A stretch of 64,000 bases of DNA from Clostridia bacterium (GTDB lineage Bacteria; Bacillota; Clostridia; TANB77; RGIG9151). The notes below the pieces were generated by a model. That model made no database searches. It had not been told where the DNA came from and saw nothing but the letters and a program-made list of their open reading frames with translations. Below, one piece after another: positions 4,688-62,511 of this stretch (its first letter is position 1; every line of letters begins with the position of its first letter). The stretch spans positions 39,515 through 103,514 of the forward strand of contig JAGBIO010000011.1 in NCBI GenBank assembly GCA_017934955.1, written 5' to 3'. Position numbers and translations under genes: made by a program.

Positions 4688-4806
4688 CACAAACTCTGTA
4701 GGGACAGCATTCATGCTGTCCTGCATTCCGCATTTTCTGGGGACAGCATAAATGCTGTCCCTACACTATTTATGCTATTTCTATAGATTTGAGTCTGAAT
4801 TGTAAC
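4688..4806. repeat. REP doublet (REPIN-like) plus downstream AGTCTGAATTGTAAC motif: one complete composite element
   Basis: GTAG-GGACAGCATTCATGCTGTCC at 4698-4721 and GGACAGCATAAATGCTGTCC-CTAC at 4741-4764, inverted and 19 nt apart. The left flank is GCACAAAC. The AGTCTGAATTGTAAC motif lies at 4792-4806. Confidence 0.9.
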
Positions 4807-4950
4807 TTCTATGTGGCAAGGACTGAAAAAATGTTTGACAAATCCTATTATTTAGTGATAAACTAAATAAGTTATTCTGTTTTTTTCCTGAAAAGGAGGT
4901 TTATTTTTTCCTTGGTCGTAGAACAGCAGAACATATAGGAGGTTTGACGT

Positions 4951-5337
4951 ATGGAAAAGAAGATTGCGGAGCATAATCGGGCAGTTCGGGAGATGATTGA
5001 GGAACGTCACAAATTGGAGTTGGCGATCAACAAGAAACTTCTGGAAGAGGGCGATGTGCTGAAGTTTGAGGAGATTATGGCGTTTATGAAGCATCATGGC
5101 TTGAAGCGGATCTGGTTTAGAGACGGAATGGGCATAAGCAAGGTTTATGGCGGTGAGCCGTTTGATTTTGACGGCTTGAGTGTCGATCTTAGGGCTACCG
5201 GGACCATAAATTCGCGGCGCCTGCTGGATTTGCTTTCTAAAGCGGCTGAAGCTGAATACGCTGAGCGTTATCGCTATACCGACGATGGGGATTTCCTGTC
5301 GAGAATCGTCATTTATACGTTTAAGGAAGAAACCTGA
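4951..5337 (+). CDS. Hypothetical protein (128 aa), GC-richer orphan
   Basis: ATG sits 9 nt after TAGGAGG and is followed by a clean terminator. No motif recognised. Confidence 0.6.
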   Translation: MEKKIAEHNRAVREMIEERHKLELAINKKLLEEGDVLKFEEIMAFMKHHGLKRIWFRDGMGISKVYGGEPFDFDGLSVDLRATGTINSRRLLDLLSKAAEAEYAERYRYTDDGDFLSRIVIYTFKEET

Positions 5338-5346
5338 GAGAGGAGG

Positions 5347-5374
5347 GAGAGCGAAAGCTCTCTTTTCTTTTTTT
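5347..5374 (+). terminator. Rho-independent terminator
   Basis: GAGAGC-GAAA-GCTCTC followed by TTTTCTTTTTTT. Confidence 0.7.
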
Positions 5375-5380
5375 AAACTC

Positions 5381-5409
5381 TTGACGAAGTTTGAAAAAAG
5401 GAATATGAT
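5381..5409 (+). promoter_or_regulatory. Sigma-A type promoter of the ileS leader
   Basis: TTGACG (5381-5386), a 17-nt spacer, then TATGAT (5404-5409). Confidence 0.6.
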
Positions 5410-5415
5410 ATAACC

Positions 5416-5650
5416 ATATTATAAAGACTTTGATGGAAACAGTAAGGTAAGATTGAAATTTTAGCGAGTCGGGAGATTGGTGAAAGCCTGATAAGAGTAA
5501 ATTTTATCCGAAAATCATTCCGGAGTTCCAAAGTGAAAAAACAGTAGCTTTTGGCGGAGGTTCACCGTTATAGGAACGACATATATTAGTATGTAGCGAG
5601 TGGTTAAACGAAAAGATAGGTTCGTCTCGATAGGAGGCGAGCCTTTTTTG
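5416..5650 (+). promoter_or_regulatory. T-box riboswitch leader, Ile (AUC) specifier, with terminator
   Basis: Stem I elements are present: the GATGGAAACAGTA K-turn-like motif, the AGCGA AG-bulge and the TTGGTGAAAG distal loop. The specifier context is GAAA-ATC-A (ATC at 5514-5516). The T-box bulge is CGAG-UGGU (5601-5604). The terminator is GGTTCGTCTC-GATAG-GAGGCGAGCC plus TTTTTT (5619-5650). It lies directly upstream of ileS. The core T-box sequence is divergent from the canonical GGGTGGTACCGCG. Confidence 0.7.
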
Positions 5651-5657
5651 TTGAAGA

Positions 5658-5791
5658 GGACAGCATGAATACTGTCCGTACGGGGATTTGGTGAGGCATT
5701 TTTGCTGGAAGAAAGGACACAATAAATTGTGTCCGTACGGAAATTTGGTGAGCCATTTTGTTGAAGAGGACAGCATGAATGCTGTCCGTAC
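5658..5791. repeat. Three tandem REP units (period ~53-57 nt) between the T-box terminator and the ileS start
   Basis: Copies lie at 5658-5681 (CAGCAT class, one arm mismatch), 5715-5738 (CACAAT class) and 5768-5791 (CAGCAT class). All are in ...GTCC-GTAC orientation and share the flank GGATTTGGTGAGCCATTTTTG. Confidence 0.9.
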
Positions 5792-9077: not shown

Positions 9078-9179
9078 TGTCTTAGATAACGTTTCATCTC
9101 TTTTTTTGAAAACTAAAGAAAATATAGGAAAATGCCGATAAATGATTTGTAAAATGGTTTCTTTATGAGGAGGAAAAGG

Positions 9180-11477
9180 ATGAAAAAGATATTATCGGCT
9201 TTATTTAGCGTATTTATGCTAATGAGTGTTTGTTATGGTTATACTTTAAAAGTAGACGATGGAAGGGGAATGACGACAAGCCAAGTTGATTCGGGAAATA
9301 CCGTATTTGTTGGTTTACCCGGAGCAGAGAATTCAAACTATGTCGTAAGAGAGGGAGATGTCACGTTAAGTGATGTTTCCGGCGAGAGTGGCATGAAGCA
9401 ATTCGTTATGCCGAGTGAAAACGTATGGATTACGTTAGTGCGTCCGGGAGACGTGAGAAAGTTAATTTTAAAGAATAATTTAGGAAAAAATGAAACTTCT
9501 TATCGGGAAATCGGCAGTACGGTAGAGGTTATTGCAGAGTATATAGAGGAATATGTATTTCAATATTGGACATCGGAAGGAATTACCTTAACAGATACTT
9601 CTGCGGAAAATTTAAGTTTTACGATGCCGATTGATCATGTAACGTTAACGGCGAACTATGTGTATGCATCAAAACCAATTACGGCAACGGCGGGGGCGAA
9701 CGGTAGCATTAGTCCGAGTGGAACGATAGAAGTAAATTGGGGAGAAAGTCAGACATATACAATGATACCTGATGCGAATTATTTGGTATCGGATGTTGTG
9801 GTGGATGGAGTGAGCGTAGGAGCAGTAACCAATTATACATTTACGAATGTAAAGGAAGAACATACGATTCATGTAGAGTTTGTAAGACCGACCTATACAA
9901 TAACAGCGAGTGCAGGAACCGGCGGAAGTATTAGTCCGAGTGGGACAACAACGGTAAACCGTGGTGAGAGTAAATCTTACACTGTTACTGCAAATTCGGG
10001 ATATGCAATAAGTGGTGTAACGGTAGATGGAACAAGTATTGGAGTAGCTACAAAGGTTTCACTTTCCAATATTACAGAAAATCATACAATTACAGTAAAC
10101 TTTGAGCAAATACCTGATACAAGCTTAGGCTATAATGGTGGTTCACAAACTTATACGGTACCTGCACGAGGTATTTATAAATTAGAAGTATGGGGCGCCG
10201 GAGGTTCTAATAATGGTGGCGGTGGAGGTTCCGGAGGATATGGTTGTGGTTACGCAATTTTAGAAAAAGGGCAGAAATTGTATGTTACAATAGGTGGAGC
10301 TGGCTCGGGAACCCAATATAATGGTGGAGGACCTCGTGGAGGAGGCGGAGCTACTCATATTGCGTCTGTGAGTGGAACTTTAACTGCTATAGGTGCATCT
10401 AATCTTTCTAAGATATATATTATTGCCGGAGGAGGCGGCGGTGGTGGTACTAAAACAGAAAGTTGGGGTTTAGTACGTACATATACAGGAGGTTCCGGAG
10501 GCGGTGAATCCGGAAGCAACGGAGGCGGTGATCCTTCATATGGCATAGCTTCTGGTGGTACACAGACTTCAGGTGCAGGTTTTGGTGGTGCAACAAGTGG
10601 AAGCGGCGGCGGAGGTCTTTATGGCGGTGTATCCGGTGGTCAAACCGGTGGCGGCGGAAGTGGATATATAGGAGGTGTTCCTTCCTTCACTTATAACGGA
10701 ACTACGTATAGTCCTTCTTGGAGTACGGGAGGAGGCGCTGGTGCACATGCTAATGGTTCAGCCAAAATTTCGTTTATAATGTCAATATCTGATGATTTTA
10801 ACTTTATAGCTCCAACACCATATGTATGTAGTGGTGGTGTACAAACCTATACGGCGCCTGTTGCAGGTTTATATAAATTAGAAGCATTTGGTGCTGGCGG
10901 TGGTGCATCCGGTGGTGCCGGTGGTTACAGCGTAGGATATGTACAATTGTCTGCAAATCAAACTCTTTATATAGTTGTTGGCGGTTCGGGAGGATCTTCA
11001 CGTTATAATGGTGGAGGAAGTCCGGGCGGTGGTGGAGCTACCCATATTGCGACTGTTAGTGGTACATTGGCTCAACTTGGAAATGTGTCTAATGTTCTGT
11101 TAATTGCCGGTGGCGGTGGCGGCGGTGCTACCAAAACAGAAAGTTGGGGTTTAGTACGTACATATACCGGAGGAGCCGGTGGAGGTAGTAGTGGTACGGC
11201 AGGTGATTTAGATCCGTCATATACGCAAGGTGTAGGTGGTACATCAAGTACCGGATATGCTTTTGGTCAAGGCGGAGATGGTTCCGGCGGAGGCGGAAGC
11301 GGTCTTTATGGTGGTACCGGCGGTGGTGGAGCTGCTGCCGGAGGCGGTGGAAGTGGATATATTGGTGGAGTTCCGGCAATTACGTATGGTGGAACAACTT
11401 ATAGTCCATCAACAACCGTTGGCGGTGGTTCTTCAAACAATTCAGATGGAAAGGTAATTATTTCCTTTGTTGGTTAA
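9180..11477 (+). CDS. Secreted multi-domain glycine-rich protein, paralog 1 (N-terminal family domain, two InlB-B-repeat-like modules, two ALK/LTK-type glycine-rich modules)
   Basis: Start moved to ATG 9180, 6 nt after GAGGAGG (MKKILSALFSVFMLMSVCYG signal peptide). Two modules match the divergent InlB B-repeat type ([13 protein letters not shown]...HTIHVEF). Two ~215-aa modules read YTVPARGIYKLEVWGAGG..GGYG.GY..L.KGQKLYV.IGG...GGGGATHIA...IIAGGGGGG...GGGGSGYIGG...NG.AKISF, which resembles Pfam Gly_rich (PF12810; identifier from memory). Confidence 0.85.
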   Translation: MKKILSALFSVFMLMSVCYGYTLKVDDGRGMTTSQVDSGNTVFVGLPGAENSNYVVREGDVTLSDVSGESGMKQFVMPSENVWITLVRPGDVRKLILKNNLGKNETSYREIGSTVEVIAEYIEEYVFQYWTSEGITLTDTSAENLSFTMPIDHVTLTANYVYASKPITATAGANGSISPSGTIEVNWGESQTYTMIPDANYLVSDVVVDGVSVGAVTNYTFTNVKEEHTIHVEFVRPTYTITASAGTGGSISPSGTTTVNRGESKSYTVTANSGYAISGVTVDGTSIGVATKVSLSNITENHTITVNFEQIPDTSLGYNGGSQTYTVPARGIYKLEVWGAGGSNNGGGGGSGGYGCGYAILEKGQKLYVTIGGAGSGTQYNGGGPRGGGGATHIASVSGTLTAIGASNLSKIYIIAGGGGGGGTKTESWGLVRTYTGGSGGGESGSNGGGDPSYGIASGGTQTSGAGFGGATSGSGGGGLYGGVSGGQTGGGGSGYIGGVPSFTYNGTTYSPSWSTGGGAGAHANGSAKISFIMSISDDFNFIAPTPYVCSGGVQTYTAPVAGLYKLEAFGAGGGASGGAGGYSVGYVQLSANQTLYIVVGGSGGSSRYNGGGSPGGGGATHIATVSGTLAQLGNVSNVLLIAGGGGGGATKTESWGLVRTYTGGAGGGSSGTAGDLDPSYTQGVGGTSSTGYAFGQGGDGSGGGGSGLYGGTGGGGAAAGGGGSGYIGGVPAITYGGTTYSPSTTVGGGSSNNSDGKVIISFVG

Positions 11478-11586
11478 AGATTTTACCGTATCATTTTTAG
11501 AGTTCTAAGCCAATCGAAGGGGTAAAAAATTTGTCTAAAGAAAAAACAATATTTGCCGATAAAACAAAAGAAGGGTGGTGGATTCC

Positions 11587-11679
11587 ATGAACCAATTACA
11601 GAAAATGAAACAAAAAGCAGAAAATATTTGTAACAGTAGTATGGTAAAAATTGTAATTGGGGGGGGGGTACACTATTAG
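11587..11679 (+). CDS. Small ORF interrupted by a G10 tract (30 aa as read; a +1 or -2 slip gives a ~53-aa ORF ending at 11744 inside the terminator)
   Basis: ATG sits 7 nt after GGTGG. Translation is MNQLQKMKQKAENICNSSMVKIVIGGGVHY. The G run is 11659-11668. The alternative frame after the G run reads TLLDKKNKEKIIKKNGSSLKSEWL and is conserved at the second locus (62625). It is below the ORF-track size cutoff. Confidence 0.45.
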   Translation: MNQLQKMKQKAENICNSSMVKIVIGGGVHY

Positions 11680-11715
11680 ATAAAAAGAATAAAGAAAAAA
11701 TAATAAAGAAGAATG

Positions 11716-11761
11716 GAAGTAGTTTAAAGTCAGAGTGGCTTTAAACTACTTCTTTTTGTTT
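11716..11761 (+). terminator. Strong rho-independent terminator 40 nt upstream of glycine-rich paralog 2
   Basis: GAAGTAGTTTAAAG-TCAGAGTGG-CTTTAAACTACTTC plus TTTTTGTTT, a 14-bp perfect stem. Confidence 0.8.
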
Positions 11762-11801
11762 AAAAAATCGAATTTGCAGGGATTACAATAGGAGGAAGAG
11801 G

Positions 11802-14072
11802 ATGAAGAGAGTATTATCGGTATTGTTTGGAATTATGATGTTGTTGAGTATTTCTTATGGCTACACGTTTAAGGTAGACGATGGAAGAAGTATGATTGTG
11901 AATGAAATGAATGCGGGAAATACTGTATTTGTTGGATTACCCGGAGCAGAGAATTCAAACTATGTCGTAAGAGAGGGAGATGTCACGTTAAGTGATGTTT
12001 CCGGCGAGAGTGGCATGAAGCAATTCGTTATGCCGAGTGAAAACGTGTGGATTACGTTAGTGCGTCCGGGAGACGTGAGAAAGTTAATTTTAAAGAATAA
12101 TTTAGGAAAAAATGAAACTTCTTATCGGGAAATCGGCAGTACGGTAGAGGTTATTGCAGAGTATATAGAGGAATATCGGTTTAAATCCTGGACAGCGGAA
12201 GGAATTACGTTATCAGATACTTCTGCAGAAAATTTAAGTTTTACGATGCCGGTTGATCATGTGACGTTAACGGCAAATTATGAATATGCAAGTCATACGG
12301 TTACCGCAACGGCAGGCGCAAACGGAAGTATTAGTCCGAGCGGAAGTTTGGAAATAAATCATGGAACAAATCGTACTTATACAATGATACCGAATACGGG
12401 GTATATCGTAGCGGATGTATTGGTAGATGGAGCAAGTGTGGGTGCAGTAACGAGTTATACATTTGAAAATATAACAGAAGATCATACTATTTCGGTAACG
12501 TTCACAGTAGGAACTTATACAGTAACATTTGATAATCAAAGTGCGACAACCGCGGGAACAACCAGCTTAACAATAACATACGGGGCGACGATGCCGAATA
12601 TAACGGTACCGACAAAGACCGGATATACATTTTATGGTTATTATACTGCTACAAACGGTGGTGGAACAAAGTATTATAATTCAGATGGAAGAAGTTTAAC
12701 GACAATGGATTTAGGTCAAGATACCACGTTGTATGCTTATTGGCAGCAGAATGCAGTACCGGCGTTTACCTATACCGGAACGTATTCGACTTCAATGGAT
12801 AGTACCTATTGGTATATTTATTGTAAATCATCCGGCACATTAACATTTAATAGCGGTATGCTGGTAGACGCATGTATCGTTGGTGGTGGTGCCGGAGGTG
12901 GCAGCGGAGATCCAGGCAAAGGTGGCGGTGGCGGAAAAGTAGTAAATCGGTTAAACGCTTCCCTTACAGCCGGGACAGGCTATGGTATTACGGTTGGTGC
13001 CGGAGGAGCAGTAAATACTGCCGGAGGTAGTTCCTCAGCATTTGGCACAACCGCTGCCGGAGGTTCAAAGGATGGCGGAGGATCTACTGGAAGGGCAGGT
13101 CCTGCAGGTTCATATGCTTTTGATAGTAGCAGCTATAGCCGCTATGGCGGAGGCGGCGGAGGCGGCGGAAGCGGAGCAGCCGGAGGAGCCGGAGGCGCAG
13201 GTGGCGGTGGTAAAGGAGGCCAAGGTGCACATTTTTATATCAGTGTCGCTAATGCCGTTGCCGGTGGAACGAATACCGGAGGTGGTGGCGGTGGTCATGG
13301 TGGTGGCCACACGTGGAAAGATGATGATGGATATAGTTATGCTGGTGGTGGTTCAGCAGCTGCCGGTGGAAGTGGTATTGTAATCATCCGTGGTAAATTT
13401 AATCAATCGGATGTTCTTCCATATTCCTTTACCGGAAACTCGATGACCGCAAAAGATAATAATTATTGGTATGTATATTTGAAATCATCCGGAACACTTA
13501 CTTTTAGTAAGAATCTGACGGTAAATGCATGTATCGTTGGCGGTGGTGCCGGAGGTGGCGGCGGAGATCCGGGAAAAGGTGGCGGTGGAGGAACCGTAAC
13601 AAACCGTTCCAATATTTCTGTTACAACCGGCACGAATTATACGATTACAATCGGAGCCGGAGGAGCAGTTGATACTGCCGGAGGCAGTTCATCTGCATTT
13701 GGTACAACGGCTGCCGGAGGCGCTGTAAATAGCGGTGGAGCTGCAAATGGCGGAGCTGGAACTGCTGGACCGTATGCATTTGGAGATAGCAGTTTGAGTC
13801 GATATGGCGGTTCCGGCGGAGGTGGCGGAAGCGGAAGTAATGCAGGAGCCGGAGGAGCCGGAGGTGCTGGTGGCGGCGGTAAAGGCGCTCAAGGTGCACA
13901 ATATTCTAACTGGGGATACAATGCCGTTGCCGGAGGAACGAATACCGGAGGCGGAGGCGGAGGCCATGGTGGTAGCCATACATGGAACGATAGTGACGGA
14001 TGGAGTTATAGTCCCGGTGGTGCAGCAGCTGCCGGCGGAAGCGGTGTTGTTATCATTCGTGTTGCTTATTAA
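11802..14072 (+). CDS. Secreted multi-domain glycine-rich protein, paralog 2 (same N-terminus, different C-terminal glycine-rich module type)
   Basis: Signal peptide, then ~150 aa almost identical to paralog 1. One InlB-B-repeat-like module. One Listeria-Bacteroides (Flg_new-type) repeat, [22 protein letters not shown]. Two ~215-aa modules read [24 protein letters not shown]...ITx[21 protein letters not shown]...GGSG(I/V)VIIR, a second and distinct glycine-rich family (Gly_rich_2-like; name from memory). Confidence 0.85.
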
Positions 14073-14131
14073 TATTTTGCATCGAAGACAGTTCCGTTTT
14101 GAAAAATAAGAAAAGGAATAAAGTAAATCAG

Positions 14132-14197
14132 AACTACCGATTAGTGATGTACATTTTTTGGTTGAACATTTAAAGTGTACTTCATTAGTCGGTGGTT
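14132..14197 (+). terminator. Long imperfect hairpin (22-bp stem) downstream of paralog 2, probable terminator
   Basis: AACTACCGATTAGTGATGTACA-N22-TGTACTTCATTAGTCGGTGGTT followed by TTGATTTATTTTG. Pairing includes G-U wobbles. Confidence 0.4.
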
Positions 14198-14268
14198 TTG
14201 ATTTATTTTGTATTCACACATTTTCTTTTTCCTGCATAGGATATAGATTGAAAAAAGGAGGAGTAAAT

Positions 14269-16104
14269 ATGTGTGGAATTGCAGGTTGGATTGATTTTAA
14301 GCGGAATTTAATGCAAGAGGAGAATATTCTTCAAAAGATGGCATCCAATTTAATTCGAAGGGGACCGGATGAGGGAGATTGTTATTGTAGTGAGAATGTG
14401 GCATTGATTCACAGGAGGTTAATTGTGATTGATCCGGAAAACGGGAAACAGCCGATGCGGTTTCGGGATTATGGAAAAGATTTGGTGTTCGTATATAACG
14501 GTGAGTTATATAATACCGAAGAAGTGCGTGGACAGCTGATAGAAAAAGGGTATCTTTTTTCAGGACATTCGGATACCGAAGTGTTGTTAAAGGCGTTTGC
14601 TTGTTGGGGAGAAGAGTGTTTGGAGAAGTTAAACGGAATTTATGCGTTTGCAATTTGGGATAATGTTAATAAAACATTGACGTTGGCACGAGATCGAATG
14701 GGTGTGAAGCCGTTATTTTATTATCCGTATCATGGTGGAATTTTATTTGCGTCGGAATTAAAGGCGCTTTTAGTAAATCCTTTGGTGAAACATGAGATTG
14801 AGGAAGATGGATTACATGAAATTTTTTCCATCGGGCCGGGGAGAACGCCGGGATGTGGTGTGATAAAAGGTGTAAAAGAAGTGAAACCCGGGTGCTTTTT
14901 GCGTTTTTCGCAGCAGGGGATTGAGGATCGTCAATATTGGAAATTAGAGGCGAAGGAACATAAAGAAAATTTGGCGGAAACGATAGAACATACGCGTTTT
15001 TTGATAAAGGATGCGATTACGAAACAGTTAGTGTCGGATGTGCCGCTTTGCTGTTTTTTGTCCGGTGGATTGGATTCGAGTATTATTTCGAAATTGGCGG
15101 GCTTGTCTTATCGGGAGAAAAATTTAGGAAAATTGACGACGTACTCGATTGATTATGAGGATAACGATAAATATTTTGTAAAAACGAAATTTCAGCCGAA
15201 TTCCGATAGTGAGTTTATTGATGCAATGGTGAAAGATATCGGTTCGGAGCATAGAAAAGTGATATTAAATAATGAAAAGTTGGCAGAGGCTTTGGATATT
15301 GCAACAGGAGCGCGAGATTTGCCGGGAATGGCGGATATTGATTCTTCTTTGGTACTGTTTTGCGAGGAGATTAAGAAGGATTTTACCGTTGCATTATCCG
15401 GAGAATGCGCGGATGAAGTGTTTGCGGGGTATCCGTGGTACCATGACCAAGAAATTTTATTTGATGAGACGTTTCCGTGGTCGCGTTCTTTGGCGTTAAG
15501 AAAGTTTATTTTGAAGGAGAATGTTTTACCGGAAATGGAGGAATACGTACATTACTGCTATGAGGATACGGTGAAGGAGACGGATCACTTAGAGGGGGAG
15601 AGTCGGTTAAATGCACGGATGCGAGAGATGTTTATGCTGAATATAAATTGGTTTATGCAGACGTTATTGGATCGAAAAGATCGAATGAGTATGTATAACG
15701 GGTTAGAGGTAAGGGTTCCGTTTTGTGACCATCGATTGGTGGAGTATTCTTTTAATATGCCTTGGGAATATAAGGCGCTTGAGGGCAGAGAAAAGGGAAT
15801 TATTCGAGAAGCGGTAAAGGATTTATTGCCGGAGGAGATTGTTTGGAGGAAGAAAAGTCCTTATCCGAAGACACATCATCCGGTGTATATGAAATTAGTG
15901 AGTGAAAAAGTTCGGGAAATTTTCAGAAAGAAAGAGTCGTTTATCGGGAATTTTGTGAAGGAGGATGCGATTGAGGAAATTATTGCGAATCCCGAGAAAA
16001 TTGCAGTGCCGTGGTATGGTCAATTGATGCGTGCTCCGCAAATGCTTGCGTATTTGATTCAAGTCGAGAAGTGGGCGGAAATTTATCAAATTCAGGTGGT
16101 TTGA
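14269..16104 (+). CDS. asnB: Asparagine synthase (glutamine-hydrolysing)
   Basis: Start moved to ATG 14269 after AAGGAGGAG. The N-terminus MCGIAGW carries the Ntn amidotransferase Cys2. The SGGLDSS PP-loop is present. Length is 611 aa. Confidence 0.9.
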   Translation: MCGIAGWIDFKRNLMQEENILQKMASNLIRRGPDEGDCYCSENVALIHRRLIVIDPENGKQPMRFRDYGKDLVFVYNGELYNTEEVRGQLIEKGYLFSGHSDTEVLLKAFACWGEECLEKLNGIYAFAIWDNVNKTLTLARDRMGVKPLFYYPYHGGILFASELKALLVNPLVKHEIEEDGLHEIFSIGPGRTPGCGVIKGVKEVKPGCFLRFSQQGIEDRQYWKLEAKEHKENLAETIEHTRFLIKDAITKQLVSDVPLCCFLSGGLDSSIISKLAGLSYREKNLGKLTTYSIDYEDNDKYFVKTKFQPNSDSEFIDAMVKDIGSEHRKVILNNEKLAEALDIATGARDLPGMADIDSSLVLFCEEIKKDFTVALSGECADEVFAGYPWYHDQEILFDETFPWSRSLALRKFILKENVLPEMEEYVHYCYEDTVKETDHLEGESRLNARMREMFMLNINWFMQTLLDRKDRMSMYNGLEVRVPFCDHRLVEYSFNMPWEYKALEGREKGIIREAVKDLLPEEIVWRKKSPYPKTHHPVYMKLVSEKVREIFRKKESFIGNFVKEDAIEEIIANPEKIAVPWYGQLMRAPQMLAYLIQVEKWAEIYQIQVV

Positions 16105-19714: not shown

Positions 19715-20079
19715 GGACAGCATGAATGCTATCCGTACGGAGATAGGCACAAATTTGTAGGGACAGCATTCATGCTGTCCGGAGATGAGACACAAAGGAT
19801 ATCTTTATTATCATATAATCTTATTTTTCTGTTGTTATTTAGTGGTTTTGTGGTACAATAACAGGTGGACACAATAAATTGTGTCCGTACGGATTGAAGA
19901 AGGAAAAACAATCAAATAAAAAGGCACAAACATTGTAGGGACACAATTCATTGTGTCCACCAAATAGGCAGTAACGTAAAAAAGAACAAACATTGTAGGG
20001 ACACAATTCATTGTGTCCACCAAATAGGCAGTAACATAAAAAAAGCACAAACAATGTAGGGACAGCATTCATGCTGTCC
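19715..20079. repeat. REP cluster (6 copies), including a 3 x 60-nt tandem array
   Basis: Copies lie at 19715-19738, 19757-19780, 19867-19890, 19935-19958, 19995-20018 and 20056-20079. The last three sit in the 60-nt unit GCACAAACATT-GTAGGGACA..TGTCC-ACCAAATAGGCAGTAACGTAAAAAA. Confidence 0.9.
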
Positions 20080-22938: not shown

Positions 22939-22960
22939 TAAGCTACAGGTAGGAAAAATA

Positions 22961-23067
22961 GGACAGCATGAATGCTGTCCGTACAGAAGAGTAGAGGTAT
23001 ATTAGGACAGCATGAATGCTGTCCGTACAGGGAGTAGAGATGTGTAGGGACAGCATTTATGCTGTCC
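22961..23067. repeat. REP cluster (3 copies) between uvrA and era
   Basis: 22961-22984 and 23005-23028 are in ..GTCC-GTAC orientation. 23044-23067 is in GTAG-GGAC.. orientation. Confidence 0.9.
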
Positions 23068-44696: not shown

Positions 44697-44720
44697 GGAC
44701 AGCATAAATGCTGTCCGTAC
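44697..44720. repeat. Single REP
   Basis: GGACAGCATAAATGCTGTCC-GTAC. Confidence 0.9.
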
Positions 44721-48152: not shown

Positions 48153-48161
48153 AGTTGGGAA

Positions 48162-48241
48162 GGACACAATAAATTGTGTCCGTACAAAAACTCTATTTTA
48201 TAACGGAGATACGCTCCGTAGGGACACAATTTATTGTGTCC
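48162..48241. repeat. REP doublet inside the S10 operon (rplB-rpsS spacer)
   Basis: 48162-48185 is GGACACAATAAATTGTGTCC-GTAC. 48218-48241 is GTAG-GGACACAATTTATTGTGTCC. Confidence 0.92.
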
Positions 48242-48308
48242 GTGTGATAACAAGTTAAAATGCTATTGTCACATGACAATAGAAATAAACGAAGAGGAGT
48301 TGTTTGAT

Positions 48309-50437: not shown

Positions 50438-50698
50438 ATGGAAGAAACAAGAGGAAGAAGAAAGGTTAGAATCGGTAAAGTTGTAAGCAACAAGATGGAT
50501 AAGACAATCGTTGTTACAATTTCTGAGAATAAAAAACATCCTTTATATAACAAAGTTATGAAATCTACGTACAGATTGAAAGCTCATGATGAAGAAAATG
50601 CTTGTGGTATCGGCGATACGGTTAAGGTTGCTGAAACAAGACCGCTTAGCAAAGACAAGAGATGGAGATTGGTTGAAATCGTAGAAAAAGCTAAGTAA
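50438..50698 (+). CDS. rpsQ: 30S ribosomal protein S17
   Basis: Start moved to ATG 50438 ([26 protein letters not shown]). Confidence 0.94.
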
Positions 50699-50748
50699 TT
50701 TAGAGACAGTAAAGATACGTTATATCGATACTGAAAGGAGTGAAAATA

Positions 50749-51114
50749 ATGATACAAGTACAATCAAGATTAAAAGTTGCTGATAATACAGGCGCTAAGG
50801 AAGTTATGTGTATAAAGGTTCTTGGCGGTTCTCATAGAAAATATGCGAATATCGGTGATGTTATTGTGGTTTCTGTTAAAACTGCAACACCCGGCGGAGT
50901 TGTTAAAAAGGGTGATGTAGCGAAAGCCGTTGTAGTTCGTTCTACAAAGGGAATTAAGAGAAACGATGGCACATCTATCAAGTTTGATGAAAATGCAGCA
51001 GTTTTGATTAAAGATGATAATACACCAAGAGGAACTCGTATTTTTGGACCTGTTGCTCGTGAATTAAGAGACGATTACATGAAGATTATTTCGTTAGCAC
51101 CGGAAGTGCTTTAA
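50749..51114 (+). CDS. rplN: 50S ribosomal protein L14
   Basis: Start moved to ATG 50749 ([18 protein letters not shown]). Confidence 0.97.
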
Positions 51115-51154
51115 TCATTAGAATCGTGTTACCAAGTGAAAGAGGTGAAATGTA

Positions 51155-51472
51155 GTGAATATTAAAAAGGGTGATACCGTACAAATCGTATCAGGTGAAG
51201 ATAAAGGTAAAAAAGGTAAAGTTCTTCAAGCAATTCCTGCTGAAAATAAGATTTTAGTAGAAGGCGTTAATGTAAGAACAAAACATATAAAGGCAAGAAG
51301 CGCTCAACAACAAGGCGGAATTACAAAGCAAGAAGTTGCAATTCCGGCATCCAAAGCAATGGTTGTTTGTGGTAAATGCAAGAGCGTAACAAGAGTTGCA
51401 CATACTACACTTTCTGACGGAACAAAAGTTAGAACTTGTAAGAAATGTAACGAATCATTAGATGTTAAGTAA
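51155..51472 (+). CDS. rplX: 50S ribosomal protein L24
   Basis: GTG start. The KOW motif is KKGDTVQIVSGEDKGKKGKV. Confidence 0.95.
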   Translation: MNIKKGDTVQIVSGEDKGKKGKVLQAIPAENKILVEGVNVRTKHIKARSAQQQGGITKQEVAIPASKAMVVCGKCKSVTRVAHTTLSDGTKVRTCKKCNESLDVK

Positions 51473-51487
51473 AGGAGGGAATCTAAA

Positions 51488-52027
51488 ATGGAAAGATTAA
51501 AAGAAAAGTACTTAAATGAAATCGCACCTAAGCTAAAAGAAAAGTTCGGATATACTTCAGCAATGCAGATTCCTAAGCTTGAAAAAATCGTACTTAACAT
51601 GGGTGTTGGCGATGTAAGAGAAAATGCGAAAGCATTGGAAAATGCAGTTCATGATATGGAAACAATTACCGGACAAAAAGCAGTCGTAACAAAAGCAAAG
51701 AAAGCGATTGCTACGTTTAAGATTAGACAAGGAATGAACATTGGATGTAAAGTTACTTTAAGAGGGGAAAATATGTATACTTTCTTGGATAAGTTCATCA
51801 GTGTTGCATTACCGAGAGTTAGAGACTTCAGAGGAATTAATCCAAATTCTTTTGATGGAAGAGGAAACTATTCAATGGGTGTTAAGGAACAATTGATATT
51901 CCCTGAAATTGATTACGATAAAGTAGACAAAATCAGAGGTATGGATATTATATTTGTTACAACAGCAAAAACAGACATTGAAGCGAAAGAGTTACTTTCT
52001 CAACTTGGAATGCCGTTTGCTAACTAA
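51488..52027 (+). CDS. rplE: 50S ribosomal protein L5
   Basis: N-terminus is [41 protein letters not shown].. Confidence 0.97.
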
Positions 52028-52067
52028 TTAAAAGACGGTTTGAAAATTGTCAGAACGGAGGTAGAAC

Positions 52068-52253
52068 ATGGCAAAGAAATCTATGATCGCGAAACAAAAA
52101 AGAACACAAAAGTTCTCTACTCGCGAATATAACAGATGTAAAATTTGCGGAAGACCGCATGCATATATCAGAAAATTCGGAATTTGCCGTTTGTGTTTCA
52201 GAACTTTAGCTCACAGAGGAGAGATTCCTGGAGTAAAGAAAGCAAGCTGGTAA
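52068..52253 (+). CDS. rpsN: 30S ribosomal protein S14, type Z (zinc-binding, 61 aa)
   Basis: [46 protein letters not shown]. Confidence 0.96.
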
Positions 52254-52291
52254 TTTGCGAGGGCAGGGTTTGAAATAAATTTTGCTATTTG

Positions 52292-52352
52292 GGACAGCAT
52301 GAATGCTGTCCGTACGGATTGTGATGTGGTAGGGACACAATTTATTGTGTCC
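52292..52352. repeat. REP doublet inside the spc operon (rpsN-rpsH spacer)
   Basis: 52292-52315 is the CAGCAT class with ..GTAC. 52329-52352 is GTAG with the CACAAT class. Confidence 0.92.
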
Positions 52353-52401
52353 GTAGAACAGGCACGATAGTAAATAAGAATCAGAGAAGGAGGTAAATAG
52401 A

Positions 52402-52788
52402 ATGAATCTTACAGATCCTATTGCAGATATGTTAACTCGTATCAGAAATGCAAATTCTTCGAAGCATGCAACTGTTGATGTACCGAAGTCCAAAATGAAG
52501 AAAGCAATCGCTGACATTTTGGTAGAAGAAGGTTATATCAGTGGTTACACTGAGGATGACAGAACTTTAAAAATCACATTGAAATATGTTGGAAATAAAC
52601 AAAAGGTAATTTCCGGATTAAAGAGAATCAGCAAACCGGGATTACGTGTTTACGCAGAATGCGAAAACTTACCAAAAGTGTTAAACGGACTTGGAATCGT
52701 ATTGGTTTCCACTTCGAAAGGTGTTATGACCGATAAGAAAGCTCGTGAAGCAGGAGTAGGCGGAGAAGTTTTAGCGTATGTTTGGTAA
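52402..52788 (+). CDS. rpsH: 30S ribosomal protein S8
   Basis: N-terminus is [22 protein letters not shown].. Confidence 0.97.
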
Positions 52789-52797
52789 GAGCCGATA

Positions 52798-52885
52798 GGA
52801 CACTTTGAGGTGTCTCGGGATTTGGACACAATAAATTGTGTCCGTACGGAGATGCAACATTGTAGGGACACAATTTATTGTGTCC
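52798..52885. repeat. REP doublet plus a decayed copy (rpsH-rplF spacer)
   Basis: A decayed GGACACTTTGAGGTGTCT lies at 52798-52816. REPs lie at 52824-52847 and 52862-52885. Confidence 0.9.
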
Positions 52886-53496: not shown

Positions 53497-53573
53497 GGAC
53501 AGCATAAATGCTGTCCGTACAAAGATAATGTTTTTATCAAGGTTGCTGCGTAGGGACAGCATTCATGCTGTCC
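53497..53573. repeat. REP doublet (rplF-rplR spacer)
   Basis: 53497-53520 is GGACAGCATAAATGCTGTCC-GTAC. 53550-53573 is GTAG-GGACAGCATTCATGCTGTCC. Confidence 0.92.
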
Positions 53574-56385: not shown

Positions 56386-56513
56386 TAAATGAATGAAGAA
56401 ACGAAGGATGTTTGGAACGGAGAAATTGCCCCTTTTGCTAAAAAGAGCGGACTTACTTTCCGTTCTGAATAGTCTTCGATTTTTCTTTTTTGTATAAAGA
56501 CTTCTGTAGCTTT

Positions 56514-56674
56514 GCAGGGACACAATTCGCGGACGTAACACCATGAGCGTAGTAAATGGATGTACGTCCTGTGCAAAGAAATTCCAAGAACGAAGTGATT
56601 GGGAAATTTCGACTGCTATTGTGTCCAGGAAATAGGCTGTAGTAGAACTAGGACACAATAAATTGTGTCCGTAC
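56514..56674. repeat. REP apparently split by an ~89-nt insert, plus one intact REP (secY-adk spacer)
   Basis: The left half GCAG-GGACACAAT-TC lies at 56514-56528. The right half ATTGTGTCC lies at 56618-56626, with the usual AGGAAATAGGC flank. The intact REP is 56651-56674. Confidence 0.7.
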
Positions 56675-58178: not shown

Positions 58179-58184
58179 AAAATT

Positions 58185-58280
58185 GGACACAATAAATTGT
58201 GTCCGTACAGGATTGAGGCTATTGTGTTATTTTGTTCACACAGAAGGCAGAGAGCAGGACAGCATGAATGCTGTCCGTAC
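58185..58280. repeat. Two REPs plus a decayed copy (map-infA spacer)
   Basis: 58185-58208 is the CACAAT class. 58257-58280 is the CAGCAT class. A decayed GTTCACACAGAAGGCAGAG flank lies between them. Confidence 0.9.
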
Positions 58281-58412: not shown

Positions 58413-58631
58413 ATGGCTAAAGAAGATGTTATTGAAGTAGAAGGCACCGTATTAGAGGCGTTGCCTAATGCGATGTTTCAGGTAGAACTGGAAAATGGGC
58501 ATAAAATTCTTGCACATATTTCCGGAAAACTACGCATGAATTTCATTAAAATTTTGCCGGGAGACAAAGTAAAATTGGAGCTTTCTCCATATGATTTGAC
58601 TCGTGGAAGAATTACATGGAGAGCAAAGTAA
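58413..58631 (+). CDS. infA: Translation initiation factor IF-1
   Basis: Start moved to ATG 58413 ([53 protein letters not shown]). Confidence 0.97.
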
Positions 58632-58674
58632 TGAAACGTATTTTGCAAATTAATTAAGAGAGGAATGAAATGAA

Positions 58675-58788
58675 ATGAAAGTAAGACCATCAGTAAAGAA
58701 AATTTGTGAAAAATGCAAATTCATCAGAAGAAAGGGTACTTTACGCGTAATTTGTGAAAACCCTAAACACAAACAAAGACAAGGCTAG
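58675..58788 (+). CDS. rpmJ: 50S ribosomal protein L36
   Basis: [37 protein letters not shown] (37 aa), read directly from the sequence. It is below the ORF-track cutoff. Confidence 0.95.
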
Positions 58789-59067
58789 GCATTATTTGCT
58801 TAGCGAAATCGAGCCTAAAGGGCGAAGAGTGAGGTTAGCAAATAAGCCCGCAGAAATTCGAAGAATTTCTGTGAACCTTAATTAAGTTTAACAATCGTAA
58901 TTTTAATTTGAAAAATTCAATAGTAGGGCGGCTGAGTAACTTTGTTACTTTCCTCTATTGTTTTTATATCGTCTGTGAGAAAGGTTGAGCACTTGATTGC
59001 AGACAATTAGTTGTGTCTTCTAATATACAAAAAGACAGTAAAATTTTTTGGAGGTGTAAATTTAAAT

Positions 59068-59430
59068 ATGGCACGTATCGCAGGTGTTGATTTACCAAGA
59101 GAAAAACGTATTGAAATTGGATTAACCTATATTTTCGGTATTGGTAGAACATTATCAAATGAAATCTTAGCTGAAACGGGAATTAATCCTGACACAAGAG
59201 TAAAGGATCTTACTGACGATCAAATCAGTAAATTGAGAGATTCTATTGAAAAGAATCATAAAGTTGAAGGTGATTTACGTAGAGAAATCGCTTTGAATAT
59301 TAAGAGATTAATGGAAATCGGTTGCTATCGTGGAACAAGACATAAGAAGGGTTTGCCGGTAAGAGGTCAAAGAACCAAGACAAATGCCCGTACATGTAAG
59401 GGTCCTAAAAAAGCAGCAGGTAAGAAATAA
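59068..59430 (+). CDS. rpsM: 30S ribosomal protein S13
   Basis: Start moved to ATG 59068 ([26 protein letters not shown]). Confidence 0.97.
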
Positions 59431-59443
59431 GGAGGGGTGAATC

Positions 59444-59839
59444 ATGGCAGGTAAAACTACTACAAAGAGAGTTAGAAGAATACAGAAAAAAAATATTGAA
59501 AAGGGTGCGGCTCATATTCATTCAACCTTTAACAATACAATTGTTACATTGACGGATGATGCCGGAAACGTTATTTCTTGGGCAAGTGCCGGAGAATTGG
59601 GATTCAAAGGTTCCAGAAAGAGCACACCGTTTGCTGCACAGATGGCTGCTGAAACAGCTTCTAAGACAGCAATGGAACACGGACTTAGAAAAGTTGATGT
59701 TTTCGTAAAAGGTCCCGGTGCAGGTCGTGAAGCTGCAATTCGTGCACTTCAAGCTGCCGGAATTGAAGTAACTTCGATTAAAGATGTTACACCGATTCCT
59801 CACAACGGTTGCAGACCGCCTAAGAGAAGAAGAGTTTAA
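59444..59839 (+). CDS. rpsK: 30S ribosomal protein S11
   Basis: ..[30 protein letters not shown].. Confidence 0.97.
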
Positions 59840-59894
59840 TGCTAAATTTTAATAGGAGAGATCTTATAATTTTATAAAGGAGTTGAATGGAATA

Positions 59895-60521
59895 ATGGCA
59901 AGATATACTGACGCATCATGTCGTCTTTGTCGTAGAGAAGGCGAAAAATTGTTCTTAAAAGGAACAAGATGTTATACAGATAAATGTGCTGTCGCAAGAC
60001 GTAATCAAGCTCCGGGTCAACATGGCGCTAAGAAGAAAAAGTTGTCCGAATACGGAGTTCAATTAAGAGAAAAACAAAAAGCAAAACAATTTTACGGTGT
60101 TTTAGAAAGCCAATTTAGAAAATATTTTGAAATGGCTTCCAATAAAAAGGGAATCACCGGTGAAAACTTGTTACAAATCTTAGAAACAAGATTAGATAAT
60201 ATCGTTTACAGAATGGGTTTGGCAACATCTCGTTCTGAAGCAAGACAAATTGTTCGTCACGGACATATTGTTGTAAATGGTAAAAAGGTAAATATTCCTT
60301 CTTACTTAGTTGAAAAAGAAGATGTTGTTTCTTTAGCAGAAAGCAGCATGAATGATGAAAAATTCAAGGTAATTATGGAACAAACTTCTGGAAGAACAGT
60401 TCCGGCTTGGATCGATTTTAACGCAGAGCAAAAGAAAGCTACTGTATTGGAACTTCCGAAGAGAGAAGATATCGATTTACCGGTTCAAGAACACTTAATC
60501 GTAGAACTTTACTCCAAGTAA
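59895..60521 (+). CDS. rpsD: 30S ribosomal protein S4
   Basis: Start moved to ATG 59895 ([23 protein letters not shown]). Confidence 0.95.
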
Positions 60522-60607
60522 TAATTGAAGGATTCAAAAGTCTTTTATTAGTTCATAAGCGGTTGGAATTCGTAGATTCTAACCTCTAATTAGGAGGAGG
60601 TTATAAA

Positions 60608-61555
60608 ATGATAGAAATCGAAAAACCAAAGATTGAATGTGTAGAACTTAGTGAAGAAAACGGTTACGGAAAATTTACCGTAGAACCGCTTGAACGCGGA
60701 TATGGTACAACTTTGGGAAATTCGTTACGCAGAATTTTGCTTTCATCCCTTCCGGGAGGAGCAATTAACAGTATCAAAATCGACGGAGTGTTACATGAGT
60801 TCTCTACTGTTCCGGGAGTTGTAGAAGACGTAACGGAAATCATTTTGAATGTAAAGCAGTTAGCGCTTGCGATTCATAGTGACGGAGAAAAAACATTGGT
60901 AATCGATGCGAATAAAGAAGGCATTGTAACTGCCGGAGATATTCAGACAGATGCAGATGTTGAAATCTTAAATCCGGATTTATATATTTGTACAATTGCG
61001 AAGGGCGGAAGCCTTCATGCTGAAATGACAGCACATAAGGGTCGTGGTTATGTTTCTGCTGAAAGAAATAAACAATACGGTCAAGCAATTGGATTGATTC
61101 CGGTAGATTCAATCTATACCCCTGTTAAAAAGGTAAATTATACGATTGAAAATACCAGAGTTGGTCAAATTACGGATTACGACAAATTGATTTTGGAAGT
61201 TTGGACAAACAAAACAATCAAGGCAGAAGAGGCAGTAAGTCTTGCTGCTAAGATTATGAGTGAACATTTGAACTTGTTTATTGATTTGTCGGAAAAAGCT
61301 AAGAATACAGAATTTATGGTTGAAAAAGAAGATTCCGGTAAGGAAAAAATCTTAGAAATGACCATTGAAGAATTAGATTTATCGGTAAGATCTTATAACT
61401 GTTTGAAGCGTGCTGGTATTAATACGGTTCAAAACTTAATCGAAAAGACGGAAGATGAAATGATGAAAGTTAGAAACTTGGGTAGAAAGTCTTTAGAGGA
61501 AGTTTTACAGAAAATTGACAGTTTAGGATTGAAATTAGCTCCAAGTGAGGAATAA
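60608..61555 (+). CDS. rpoA: DNA-directed RNA polymerase subunit alpha
   Basis: [47 protein letters not shown].. with the C-terminal domain ..[14 protein letters not shown].. Confidence 0.97.
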
Positions 61556-61582
61556 TTAAATTTTGTAAGGAGGAAAGAAGAC

Positions 61583-62107
61583 ATGGCAGGTACGAGAAAA
61601 TTAGGACGCACTACTGACCATAGATTGTCTATGCTTAGAACTCTTACAACTTCGCTTTTATTAAATGGCAAGATTGAAACCACAGAAGCAAAAGCAAAAG
61701 AAGTAAGACCTATCGTAGAAAAACTCATTACGCTTGGTATTAAAGAGCAAGCAAATGTAACAACAGCTGAAAAAACAGTAAGCTATGCAAAGGTAGATGC
61801 AAAGGGAAATAAAGTATTGGTTGATGCAACAAGCAAAAACGGCAGAAAATATAAAAAGGTAGAAAGAGAAACCATTAAGAAGACAGTTGAAATCGATTTA
61901 CCTTCTAAACTTGCTGCAAGAAGAACAATGTTTAAGTACGTTAACAAAGTAAAGGATAATGACGGAAAGAATATTGATTTGACAGCAAAATTGTTTGGCG
62001 AATTGGCTGATAAGTACAAGGATAGAACAGGCGGATATACAAGAATTTTGAAGCTTGGTCAAAGACGTGGCGACGCAGCTGAGATGGTTATTTTGGAATT
62101 GATTTAA
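61583..62107 (+). CDS. rplQ: 50S ribosomal protein L17 with a ~50-aa internal insertion (174 aa)
   Basis: The N-terminus is ..RKLGRTTDHRLSMLRTLTTSLLLNGKIETTEAKAKEVR.. and the C-terminus is ..GGYTRILKLGQRRGDAAEMVILELI. A Lys-rich insert lies between them. Confidence 0.95.
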   Translation: MAGTRKLGRTTDHRLSMLRTLTTSLLLNGKIETTEAKAKEVRPIVEKLITLGIKEQANVTTAEKTVSYAKVDAKGNKVLVDATSKNGRKYKKVERETIKKTVEIDLPSKLAARRTMFKYVNKVKDNDGKNIDLTAKLFGELADKYKDRTGGYTRILKLGQRRGDAAEMVILELI

Positions 62108-62126
62108 TAGTTTTATATCACTTATT

Positions 62127-62164
62127 GAGGGTGGAAAATTCGGAAAGGATTTTCCACTCTTTTG
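62127..62164 (+). terminator. Rho-independent terminator ending the alpha operon
   Basis: GAGGGTGGAAAAT-TCGGAAAGG-ATTTTCCACTC-TTTT. Confidence 0.75.
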
Positions 62165-62399
62165 GTTGTATAGGAAAAATCGAAGATTTTGCCTATACAA
62201 CAACGAAAGTATCATAGTGTTTGCCCGTAGGGCAACATGAGTAAATCAAAAATCTTTGATTTTTAGATTTACACTTTTGTTCTATATGCTTCTTACGTTC
62301 CTTTTTGTTTTATAATAGGATAAAAAAATAGTATGGAAATAGTTTACATCAAAAATCATACACTTCCTAATTGACTAAAATACGCCATTAAAAAACGTT

Positions 62400-62511
62400 G
62401 TAGGGACACCATTCATTGTGTCCTAAACCTACCGTCTGCCAATTTCTCGGACACCATAAATGGTGTCCCTACAAGGATTGATGCATTATTTACGTACATT
62501 TGCATTGTAAC
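62400..62511. repeat. Composite REP element (doublet plus decayed TGTAAC end); left copy has hybrid arms
   Basis: 62400-62423 is GTAG-GGACACCAT-TC-ATTGTGTCC (arms from two classes, one mismatch). 62449-62472 is GGACACCATAAATGGTGTCC-CTAC. TGCATTGTAAC lies at 62501-62511. Confidence 0.88.

Follow-up and report, generated by a model that had tools for sequence, protein, structure and literature searches.

In the 64,000-nt stretch of contig JAGBIO010000011.1 analyzed here (the window), intergenic regions carry a family of short hairpin repeats, with 46 strict copies and 1 degenerate copy of the pattern GTA(G/C)-GGACA(GC/CA/CC)AT-NN-AT..TGTCC. A first-pass annotation had placed these repeats in the REP/BIME/REPIN-like class (repetitive extragenic palindromes, bacterial interspersed mosaic elements, and REP doublets forming hairpins) with a GTAG tag, and the stem, loop, tag, doublets, arrays, and folding all match that class. 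The repeats are probably a REP/BIME family of the GTAG superfamily, resembling the type that accompanies RayT (TnpA-REP) transposases of subclass 2.4, that was spread by a RayT and by local duplication and whose copies now lie within operons as RNA hairpins.

With up to two mismatches allowed, the pattern gave 56 strand-specific matches in the window, compared to 0.01 expected, and none of 100 shuffled sequences reached 56; because the core is palindromic, these matches amount to 46 distinct cores. Each of the 47 start positions listed previously was recovered, 46 as strict copies and one (30258) as a degenerate copy with three mismatches and no tag. An exact half-site search for remnants, which had also been claimed, located one half-site (27224), a split copy (56518/56618), and an isolated 9-mer (25935) besides the degenerate copy at 30258. 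As proposed, all copies are intergenic once over-long starts of open reading frames (ORFs) are corrected, and the gene calls agree; the corrected in-frame starts, at 25105, 32644, and 35561, follow the REPs, and a clear AGGAGG-type ribosome-binding site precedes the first two. The statement that almost every gap is filled was too strong, since a copy is present in 19 of the 32 gaps of at least 60 nt and in 19 of the 44 gaps of at least 20 nt. The density is ∼0.75 units/kb, with the units making up ∼1.9% of the 58-kb core and whole clusters ∼3.4% (summed cluster spans). The flanking 15 kb hold 14 further copies, some of them degenerate, compared to 46 in 59 kb of the window itself, and the extrapolated copy number is well over a thousand.

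Structure, tags, and arrangement of the repeat unit

The unit is 24 nt long and consists of a 9-bp stem, a 2-nt loop, and an unpaired 5' tetranucleotide positioned directly at the stem foot. The foot is always GGAC/GTCC and the top always AT/AT; stem positions 5 to 7 vary and stay complementary. The tagged hairpins include the forms GTAG/GTAC-GGACAGCAT and GTAG- and GTAC-GGACAGCATTCATGCTGTCC. A perfect palindrome is found in 41 of the 46 cores, and the loops read TC (25 copies) or TT (21 copies). The three arm classes described earlier were all present (CAGCAT/ATGCTG in 25 copies, CACAAT/ATTGTG in 16, and CACCAT/ATGGTG in 2), together with 3 hybrid or mismatched copies.

The tag is GTAG in 20 copies, GTAC in 25, and GCAG in 1, always at the 5' foot, and its GTA is otherwise invariant. 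Tag identity is tied to orientation: plus-strand copies carry GTAG (16 copies) or GCAG (1 copy), and minus-strand copies carry GTAC (25 copies) or GTAG (4 copies) (Fisher's exact p = 7e-9). The four minus-strand GTAG copies are mostly partners in head-to-head doublets; the GTAC tag accompanies tail-to-tail doublets, tandem arrays, and singletons. The organization into doublets and arrays was borne out, with 20 clusters of 1 to 6 units; their neighboring copies form 11 tail-to-tail pairs (tags inside), 6 head-to-head pairs (tags outside), and 9 tandem pairs. Almost all copies lie between codirectional genes. Nine minus-strand copies start 4 to 22 nt past a stop codon, and plus-strand copies lie 20 to 50 nt ahead of the next start; the usual order between two plus-strand genes is a stop-proximal minus copy followed by a start-proximal plus copy. 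Some copies have extended conserved flanks (...ggcacaaac-GTAG-[hairpin]-acagaaaaggcag), and in tandem arrays the flanks are repeated with periods of 44 to 64 nt, which points to local duplication.

As RNA, a single unit is predicted to fold at −13.5 kcal/mol (z-score, −4.5), and the folding of units and doublets is much more stable than that of shuffled sequence (z-scores, −4.5 to −10.6). Same-class doublets (37078 to 37155, 48155 to 48250, and 22955 to 23075) are predicted to form long hairpins of ∼20 to 25 pairs at −40 to −58 kcal/mol. Mixed-class doublets (52292/52333; 52285 to 52360) cannot form such a hairpin because they combine two different arm classes. No U tract was found after any copy on the sense strand, indicating that the REPs are not terminators and should be transcribed through. 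Between 19 and 39 kb, no REP scored as a terminator on the plus (sense) strand; six minus copies have T-rich tails, on the antisense strand only.

The plus copies also read, on the opposite strand, as TGGACA-N16-TACAAT or a near variant, which resembles a sigma-70 promoter. Such minus-strand sites were noted at 19932 to 19959, 19992 to 20019, 27206 to 27233 (TATAAT), 37079 to 37106 (TACACT), and 38785 to 38812; the −35 element is the 3' arm plus one flanking base, and the −10 element is the tag plus flank. Some minus copies similarly give AGGACA-N16-TACAAT on the plus strand (e.g., 27251 to 27278). This resemblance could be coincidental, or each unit could provide a weak, portable promoter.

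Related repeats, RayT genes, and lineage specificity

An exact-pattern scan with one genome per species returned at least 101 DNA stretches; the source genome was not among the matches listed. Among those that were, the same GTAG-GGAC...GTCC core occurs in metagenome-assembled genomes (MAGs) labeled Chloroflexota/Anaerolineae, Ignavibacteriaceae, Thermotogae, Latescibacterota, and Nostoc, and likewise in MAGs labeled Bacteroidota (Rhodothermales, Muribaculaceae, and Prevotella) and Clostridia/Oscillospiraceae/Acutalibacteraceae. Neighboring hairpins in those loci, which fall outside the search pattern, have the same GTAG tag, GGAC/GTCC foot, and AT top with other complementary middle triplets (e.g., GCC, GAG, GGG, ATA, and AGA), and they are often arranged as doublets. 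Double-foot units (GTAG...CTAC) are present in the related loci L010, L028, L029, L053, and L084. The GTAC-tagged variant was essentially absent from JGI metagenomes, where there was one unrelated match in DNA of 58% GC.

Compensatory covariation of the arms, claimed previously from the copies in the window, was upheld in this wider family; within the window, it reduces to two or three master sequences rather than numerous independent changes. Across 88 distinct tagged units collected from the window and ∼100 loci, 97.1% of stem cells are paired, and 14 different complementary middle triplets occur. Both sides were changed in 127 cells, compared to 40.7 in shuffles; none of 500 shuffles reached the score, and the signal was gone when the partner columns were slid. 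These results indicate that the hairpin is under constraint across the family.

Clustering of the ORFs beside the repeats at the 101 loci gave no dominant neighbor family, and only one RayT was found within those loci. In L049, a Clostridia MAG, a 185-residue ORF carries HUH (NHLH), WQ, and YIDSNP motifs, matches the NCBIfam model "REP-associated tyrosine transposase" (E = 5e-19), and weakly matches the Escherichia coli TnpA-REP structure 4ER8. Identical GTAG-GGACACCAT..GTCC units stand on both sides of this ORF, and its TAG stop codon lies inside a tag. It has thousands of homologs, many of them named "REP element-mobilizing transposase RayT" by JGI. Five other loci (L126, L133, L137, L139, and L123) have a RayT gene with in-frame and/or flanking GTAG REPs. 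The core at the RayT genes is of the GGAC type in L049, L126, and L139 and of the GGAAT/GGAAG type in L133 and L137 (Ruminococcaceae and Clostridia MAGs), where the REP reads GTAG-GGAATGCAT-TT-ATGCATTCC and is unlike that of the window at two stem positions. In L126 (39% GC), the RayT gene lies between uvrB and uvrA and has an internal REP pair; L137 has one upstream REP and an internal pair, and L139 has internal copies and three downstream.

The internal copies are inverted GTAG REP pairs that are read in frame within the RayT ORFs, between the HUH and Tyr motifs (L126, 4260 to 4321; L133, 10261 to 10366; L137, 576 to 681; L139, 6259 to 6411; and L123, 4118 to 4311). They encode the peptide pairs RTPCMVSLQ/VGTRYIVS, EGINPFPT/VGNAFMHS, and VGASSARP/GRALLAPT, and the EGINPFPT/VGNAFMHS pair is kept in 24 diverged homologs. 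In one protein (P0004), the REP-encoded peptides RTPCMVSLQ and VGTRYIVS accompany the motifs NHVH, WQ, and YIDTNP. In-frame REPs within the gene are a hallmark of TnpA-REP subclass 2.4, which is equivalent to group 4 of Bertels; enzymes of this subclass have NH[IFV]H/WQ/YIxNNP motifs and long and double-foot REPs, and their hosts are Cyanobacteria, Bacteroidetes, and various other phyla (PMC6006769). The RayT genes beside such REPs in other genomes show the motifs published for subclass 2.4, and the occurrence of REPs beside or within them gives indirect support to the link with RAYT/TnpA-REP enzymes drawn in the first-pass annotation.

The repeats of the window are specific to its lineage in the comparisons made. 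Nine related genomes, with an identical IF-1 protein and ∼78% DNA identity over the spc-alpha region, have no GGAC-type REPs in 14 kb where this genome has 13, and several gaps in that 14 kb are shorter in them. No REPs were found in the 2.3- to 2.5-kb contigs of a relative at 91.5% identity (samples ERZ27256879 and ERZ28653778), whose intergenic DNA is unalignable beyond the promoter-proximal 110 nt. Other insertions were seen in the same operon of the related genomes (L112, 3482 to 5158; L116, 5462 to 6039; and L113, 5650 to 6039): a peptidase S15-like gene separates secY from adk, and a HicA/HicB toxin-antitoxin pair separates adk from map, indicating that the operon is permissive at its junctions within the clade.

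The left end of the window provides a further comparison. Positions 1 to ∼4610, together with 1.3 kb further left (9341 to 15313 of the flanking contig L107), form a 5.9-kb integrative element of 29% GC that encodes a tyrosine integrase, helix-turn-helix regulators, and a DUF4352/Cu_amine_oxidN1 protein. The element sits in a tRNA 3' end and is bounded by a ∼62-nt direct repeat resembling the 3' end of the tRNA gene (window ∼4545 to 4606; L107 15250 to 15313, the latter beside an intact tRNA-like sequence). A Logan contig of 5,936 nt (L108) is a circular permutation of it with overlapping ends and hence represents an excised or circular form. No REPs were found in the 5.9-kb element, and the core DNA on both sides carries them. 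The REP-free element is a recent acquisition and serves as an internal control.

Repeat clusters, gene content, and host

From left to right, the first cluster (4698 to 4764) lies directly to the right of the integrative element and is a head-to-head doublet of CAGCAT-class GTAG-REPs, one on the plus strand (4698) and one on the minus strand (4741). Upstream of ileS, three minus-strand GTAC-REPs (5658, 5715, and 5768) form a tandem array (5658 to 5791) with the repeated flank aaatggctcaccaaat. Six copies in the order −+−+++ (19715 to 20079) fill a 530-nt gap upstream of uvrA and include an array with a 60-nt period (19935, 19995, and 20056). Triplets follow between uvrA and era (22961 to 23067; −−+), with the first copy 22 nt past the uvrA stop, and between recO and fabI (24972 to 25083; −−+), with the first copy 5 nt past the recO stop and a degenerate third copy that carries the GCAG tag. 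A third triplet (27252 to 27445; −+−) has the half-site remnant just upstream (27224 to 27232). The tail-to-tail doublet at 30214 to 30320 pairs a CACCAT-class with a CAGCAT-class copy, with the degenerate copy (30258 to 30277) in between. Upstream of a hydrogenase-like gene, four copies (32388 to 32601; −−−+) include a tandem array with a 64-nt period.

A single minus-strand GTAC-REP is found at 35490 to 35513, 4 nt past the stop of a PP2C/SpoIIE-like gene. Head-to-head doublets occupy 37082 to 37149, where a GTAG plus copy and a GTAC minus copy form a predicted REPIN-like hairpin of ∼24 pairs (−42 kcal/mol), and 38788 to 38860, where both copies carry GTAG. Two further minus-strand GTAC singletons lie at 42251 to 42274, 12 nt past a stop codon, and at 44697 to 44720, 13 nt past a stop and upstream of the S10 operon. 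Within the ribosomal-protein operons, tail-to-tail doublets are located in the S10 operon between the gene read as rplB and the next ribosomal-protein gene (48162 to 48241), between rpsN (S14) and rpsH (S8) (52292 to 52352), between rpsH and rplF (L6) (52824 to 52885), and between rplF and rplR (L18) (53497 to 53573). The cluster between secY and adk (56514 to 56674) contains a split REP, GCAG-GGACACAAT followed by a structured insert and ATTGTGTCC, and then a GTAC-REP at 56651. In the split copy (56514 to 56626), the 91-nt insert stands where the 2-nt loop belongs, and the 136 nt that span it (56505 to 56640) are predicted to fold at −43.8 kcal/mol (z-score, −3.6). Two tandem minus-strand GTAC-REPs lie between map and infA (58185 to 58280), the first 6 nt past the map stop, and a head-to-head CACCAT-class doublet with one hybrid arm (CACCAT/ATTGTG) lies downstream of rplQ (62400 to 62472).

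The REPs are breakpoints for short-read assembly. Two same-strain Logan contigs assembled from short reads, L120 (window 50486 to 52852) and L121 (51199 to 52852), end at the same base inside the doublet downstream of rpsH. ORF predictions were also seen to run through REPs at 25054, 32527, 35501, and 48234.

The genes of the window include ileS, an asparagine synthase gene, uvrA, era, recO, fabI, genes for two [FeFe]-hydrogenase-type proteins and a ClpX-like ATPase, and the S10-spc-alpha ribosomal-protein operons with secY, adk, map, infA, and rpoA. Nearly all of them are on the plus strand, and the GC skew is strongly and uniformly positive, at +0.2 to +0.4 per 2-kb window. The sole exception is the region from 16 to 20 kb, where the skew is near zero and a 980-residue gene with no family match lies on the minus strand. 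Positions 58608 to 63555 are 100% identical to a 249-kb ENA metagenome contig, ERZ28018929:k141_330398, and the same strain is present in Logan assemblies. On the 249-kb contig, genes for SigE and SigG lie 5 to 7 kb to the right, both above the NCBIfam cutoffs, indicating that the host is an endospore-forming member of the Bacillota. The host, a gut or environmental bacterium with ∼38% GC, most likely belongs to the Clostridia, a class assignment based on SigE and SigG.

The window gave no matches in Rfam and tRNA scans. The rpmJ gene (L36; 58675 to 58788) is present and is uncalled in the existing annotation of the contig; an unusually long, REP-free gap of 279 nt runs from rpmJ to rpsM. Two adjacent large paralogous genes (9165 to 11477 and 11802 to 14072; 770 and 756 residues) encode Flg_new/Gly-rich repeat proteins according to Pfam hits and share identical internal DNA stretches (e.g., GGATTACGTTAGTGCGTCC at 9427 and 12049).

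Proposed spread of the repeats and relation to known systems

In the mechanism that we favor, the hairpin and its GTAG "guide" on transiently single-stranded DNA would be bound, cut, and rejoined by RayT/TnpA-REP, a single-domain HUH/Y1 nuclease, and new intergenic copies would be seeded in this way. Tandem arrays would then be built by local slippage or unequal recombination. The copies would be transcribed as stable RNA hairpins, at the predicted energy given above for each unit and about −40 kcal/mol for each same-class doublet, and would punctuate operons as 3' exonuclease barriers or translation modulators rather than as terminators. The data establish the sequence family with its structure, covariation, organization, lineage-specific occurrence, and association with RayT genes elsewhere; that a RayT mobilizes the repeats in this genome, and that they act at the RNA level, is inferred. 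Judged from GC skew and gene orientation, the plus strand, which carries the GTAG copies, is probably the lagging-strand template, a position that would fit the strand preference known for IS200/IS605-type enzymes. Since replication and transcription run in the same direction here, their effects on the tag are inseparable in this window.

Several observations weigh against this reading. No RayT or Y1 gene was found by tblastn and a 120-homolog hidden Markov model in the ∼79 kb of this genome that was read (the window plus the L106 and L107 flanks). Candidate RayTs were chosen by source signature, contig count, amino acid composition, or REP-like peptides, and P0064, P0016, P0033, P0154, P0174, and P0171 all proved to come from other organisms. 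The RayT of L049 scores below the curated cutoffs (68.7 versus 80 bits for NCBIfam and 16.8 versus 23 bits for Pfam Y1_Tnp). The RayT-bearing Clostridia loci inspected hold few REPs, 2 to 6 per 6 to 20 kb, indicating that a high copy number is not general to the enzyme clade, and group 4 repeats are modest in number, with ∼14 flanking 16-mer occurrences per replicon (Bertels 2017, PMC5581495). The tag is GTAC, not GTAG, in 25 of the 46 copies, and GTAC is absent from the tag variants of PMC3733652. Finally, the comparisons at ∼78% and 91.5% identity gave no clean pair of empty and filled sites, because the intergenic DNA is too diverged to align.

A chimeric profile carrying peptides encoded by the REPs of the window (VGTAFMLS, DSMNAVRT, and others) retrieved only short RayT fragments, none with such a peptide. 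The possibility, raised by the uvrB-RayT-uvrA arrangement of L126, that the 530-nt REP cluster upstream of uvrA is a decayed RayT gene was rejected, as no protein similarity is left in it.

The hairpins could instead be RNA elements selected by the host, as 3'-end stabilizers or as processing or translation-coupling signals, and spread by recombination or gene conversion with no dedicated transposase. The spacing of minus copies after stops and of plus copies before starts would suit such elements, as would their stability as RNA, their presence inside essential ribosomal-protein operons that remain unbroken, and the lack of a RayT in the ∼79 kb read. REPs of E. coli have been reported to affect mRNA stability and translation, and a 2026 preprint terms them regulators of the 3' untranslated region. 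We consider this explanation unlikely as a complete account, since it leaves unexplained the conserved unpaired GTAG tag, the tandem arrays that duplicate flanks, the occurrence of the same core beside or inside RayT genes in several phyla, and the finding that related genomes with the same operons lack the repeats completely. A role at the RNA level is compatible with spread by a RayT, as a secondary role. Even less probable is that the repeats are relics of a past burst, the cognate RayT having been lost and the copies persisting or decaying passively and growing in number by local duplication only. In favor of this reading, no RayT was found in the ∼79 kb read, genomes that have REPs and lack a tnpA-REP gene have been noted (PMC6006769), degenerate, half, and split copies exist here, and the GTAC tag could be a variant that arose after the burst. 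However, 41 of the cores are perfect palindromes and 25 copies share the CAGCAT/ATGCTG arms, which argues for recent copying or selection, and the ∼79 kb without a RayT amount to only ∼3% of a typical genome.

There is very little to recommend the remaining alternatives, namely, miniature inverted-repeat transposable elements (MITEs) of DDE transposons, intrinsic terminators, operators for a dimeric regulator, and an assembly artifact. A MITE origin is at odds with a unit that is the hairpin alone: no terminal inverted repeats were found beyond it, no target-site duplications were obvious in the 46-copy alignment with 24-nt flanks (no formal test was run), and no DDE transposase was found in the region. 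A few minus copies are terminator-like on the antisense strand, but the missing sense-strand U tract speaks against termination. A dimeric protein might in principle recognize the perfect 20-nt palindromes; however, the arms covary in a way that keeps pairing rather than a fixed sequence, and the copies lie at the 3' ends of genes and in arrays. An artifact is difficult to reconcile with a sequence that is 100% identical in independent ENA and Logan assemblies from several samples.

The pneumococcal BOX and RUP elements are, like the repeats of the window, intergenic, multicopy, structured repeats in a member of the Firmicutes, but they are 100 to 200 nt long and modular or MITE-like, with no GTAG tag and no link to HUH/Y1 enzymes. 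The closest likeness is to the GTAG superfamily, which includes E. coli REP/BIME and the SMAG repeats of Stenotrophomonas (PMC3733652). In line with that superfamily, whose short extragenic palindromes have a stem of 6 to 13 bp and a loop of 2 to 3 nt, the repeats carry an unpaired terminal GTAG, fall into subfamilies set apart by complementary changes in the stem, form clusters and both head-to-head and tail-to-tail dimers, and lie mostly between codirectional genes and downstream of coding regions. They differ in host phylum, given that GTAG REPs were found only in Proteobacteria, Cyanobacteria, Chloroflexi, and PVC (Planctomycetes-Verrucomicrobia-Chlamydiae) (Di Nocera, De Gregorio and Rocco 2013, PMC3733652), and in a majority tag, GTAC, that is unlisted there, with the tag tied to orientation. 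A search of the text and five supplementary files of that work did not turn up the GGACA(GC/CA/CC)AT core. The repeats are also denser than those of E. coli, at ∼0.75/kb and ∼1.9% of DNA in units, versus "up to 1%" (PMC6006769).

Repeats of subclass 2.4/group 4 (Quentin et al. 2018, PMC6006769; PMC5581495) likewise consist of a long canonical hairpin with the tetranucleotide immediately at its foot, and the related loci share with that subclass double-foot variants, in-frame REPs, and NH[ILV]H/WQ/YIxxNP enzymes scattered over many phyla. The published foot has three consecutive G-C pairs, whereas the foot here is G-C, G-C, A-T, C-G in 88 of 88 units; a third G-C pair is formed only in double-foot copies, in which a 3' C is the partner of the final G of the tag. 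Against the ∼14 occurrences per replicon of the 16-mers that flank group 4 genes stands an extrapolated number here of well over a thousand copies, and abundant REPs have been described only with RAYT groups 2 and 3 (Bertels 2017, PMC5581495). In common with the REPIN-RAYT systems of Pseudomonas and Enterobacteria (Bertels and Rainey 2011, PMC3116915), inverted doublets with short spacers fold into one long hairpin, the master sequences are few and near identical, and the family is lineage specific; unlike in those systems, many copies are singletons or tandem arrays of one orientation, and doublets are often of mixed class.

A more far-reaching scenario, which we regard as doubtful, is a thousand-copy colonization of a Clostridia lineage by a REP type otherwise tied to low-copy-number subclass 2.4/group 4 RayTs, followed by co-option as operon punctuation. 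The strict rule, with GTAG on the strand that GC skew and gene orientation point to as the lagging-strand template and GTAC, whose copies abut stop codons, on the opposite one, would then mark two half-elements of different function, one serving as the substrate for transposition and the other as a fixed signal for RNA or translation; alternatively, the family would be kept without a RayT.

The kind of repeat is thus known, and what is new is the host, an endospore-forming member of the Firmicutes, together with the high density and a GTAG/GTAC orientation rule that had not been described. The remark in the first-pass annotation that no such dense REP colonization was known from a low-GC Gram-positive genome holds against the searchable literature (PMC3733652; PMC5581495), and Firmicutes were unmentioned in this context in the REP/RAYT literature searched. 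In practice, REPs of this kind break short-read assemblies and inflate ORF calls. REP/REPIN populations have been studied almost only in Proteobacteria; spore-forming Clostridia with ∼0.75 REPs/kb and a GTAG-GGAC core in several phyla would extend the known host range. The strand specificity of the mechanism can be approached simply through the orientation rule, and the host-range findings would together form a natural experiment on the ability of subclass 2.4/group 4 enzymes to drive large REP populations.

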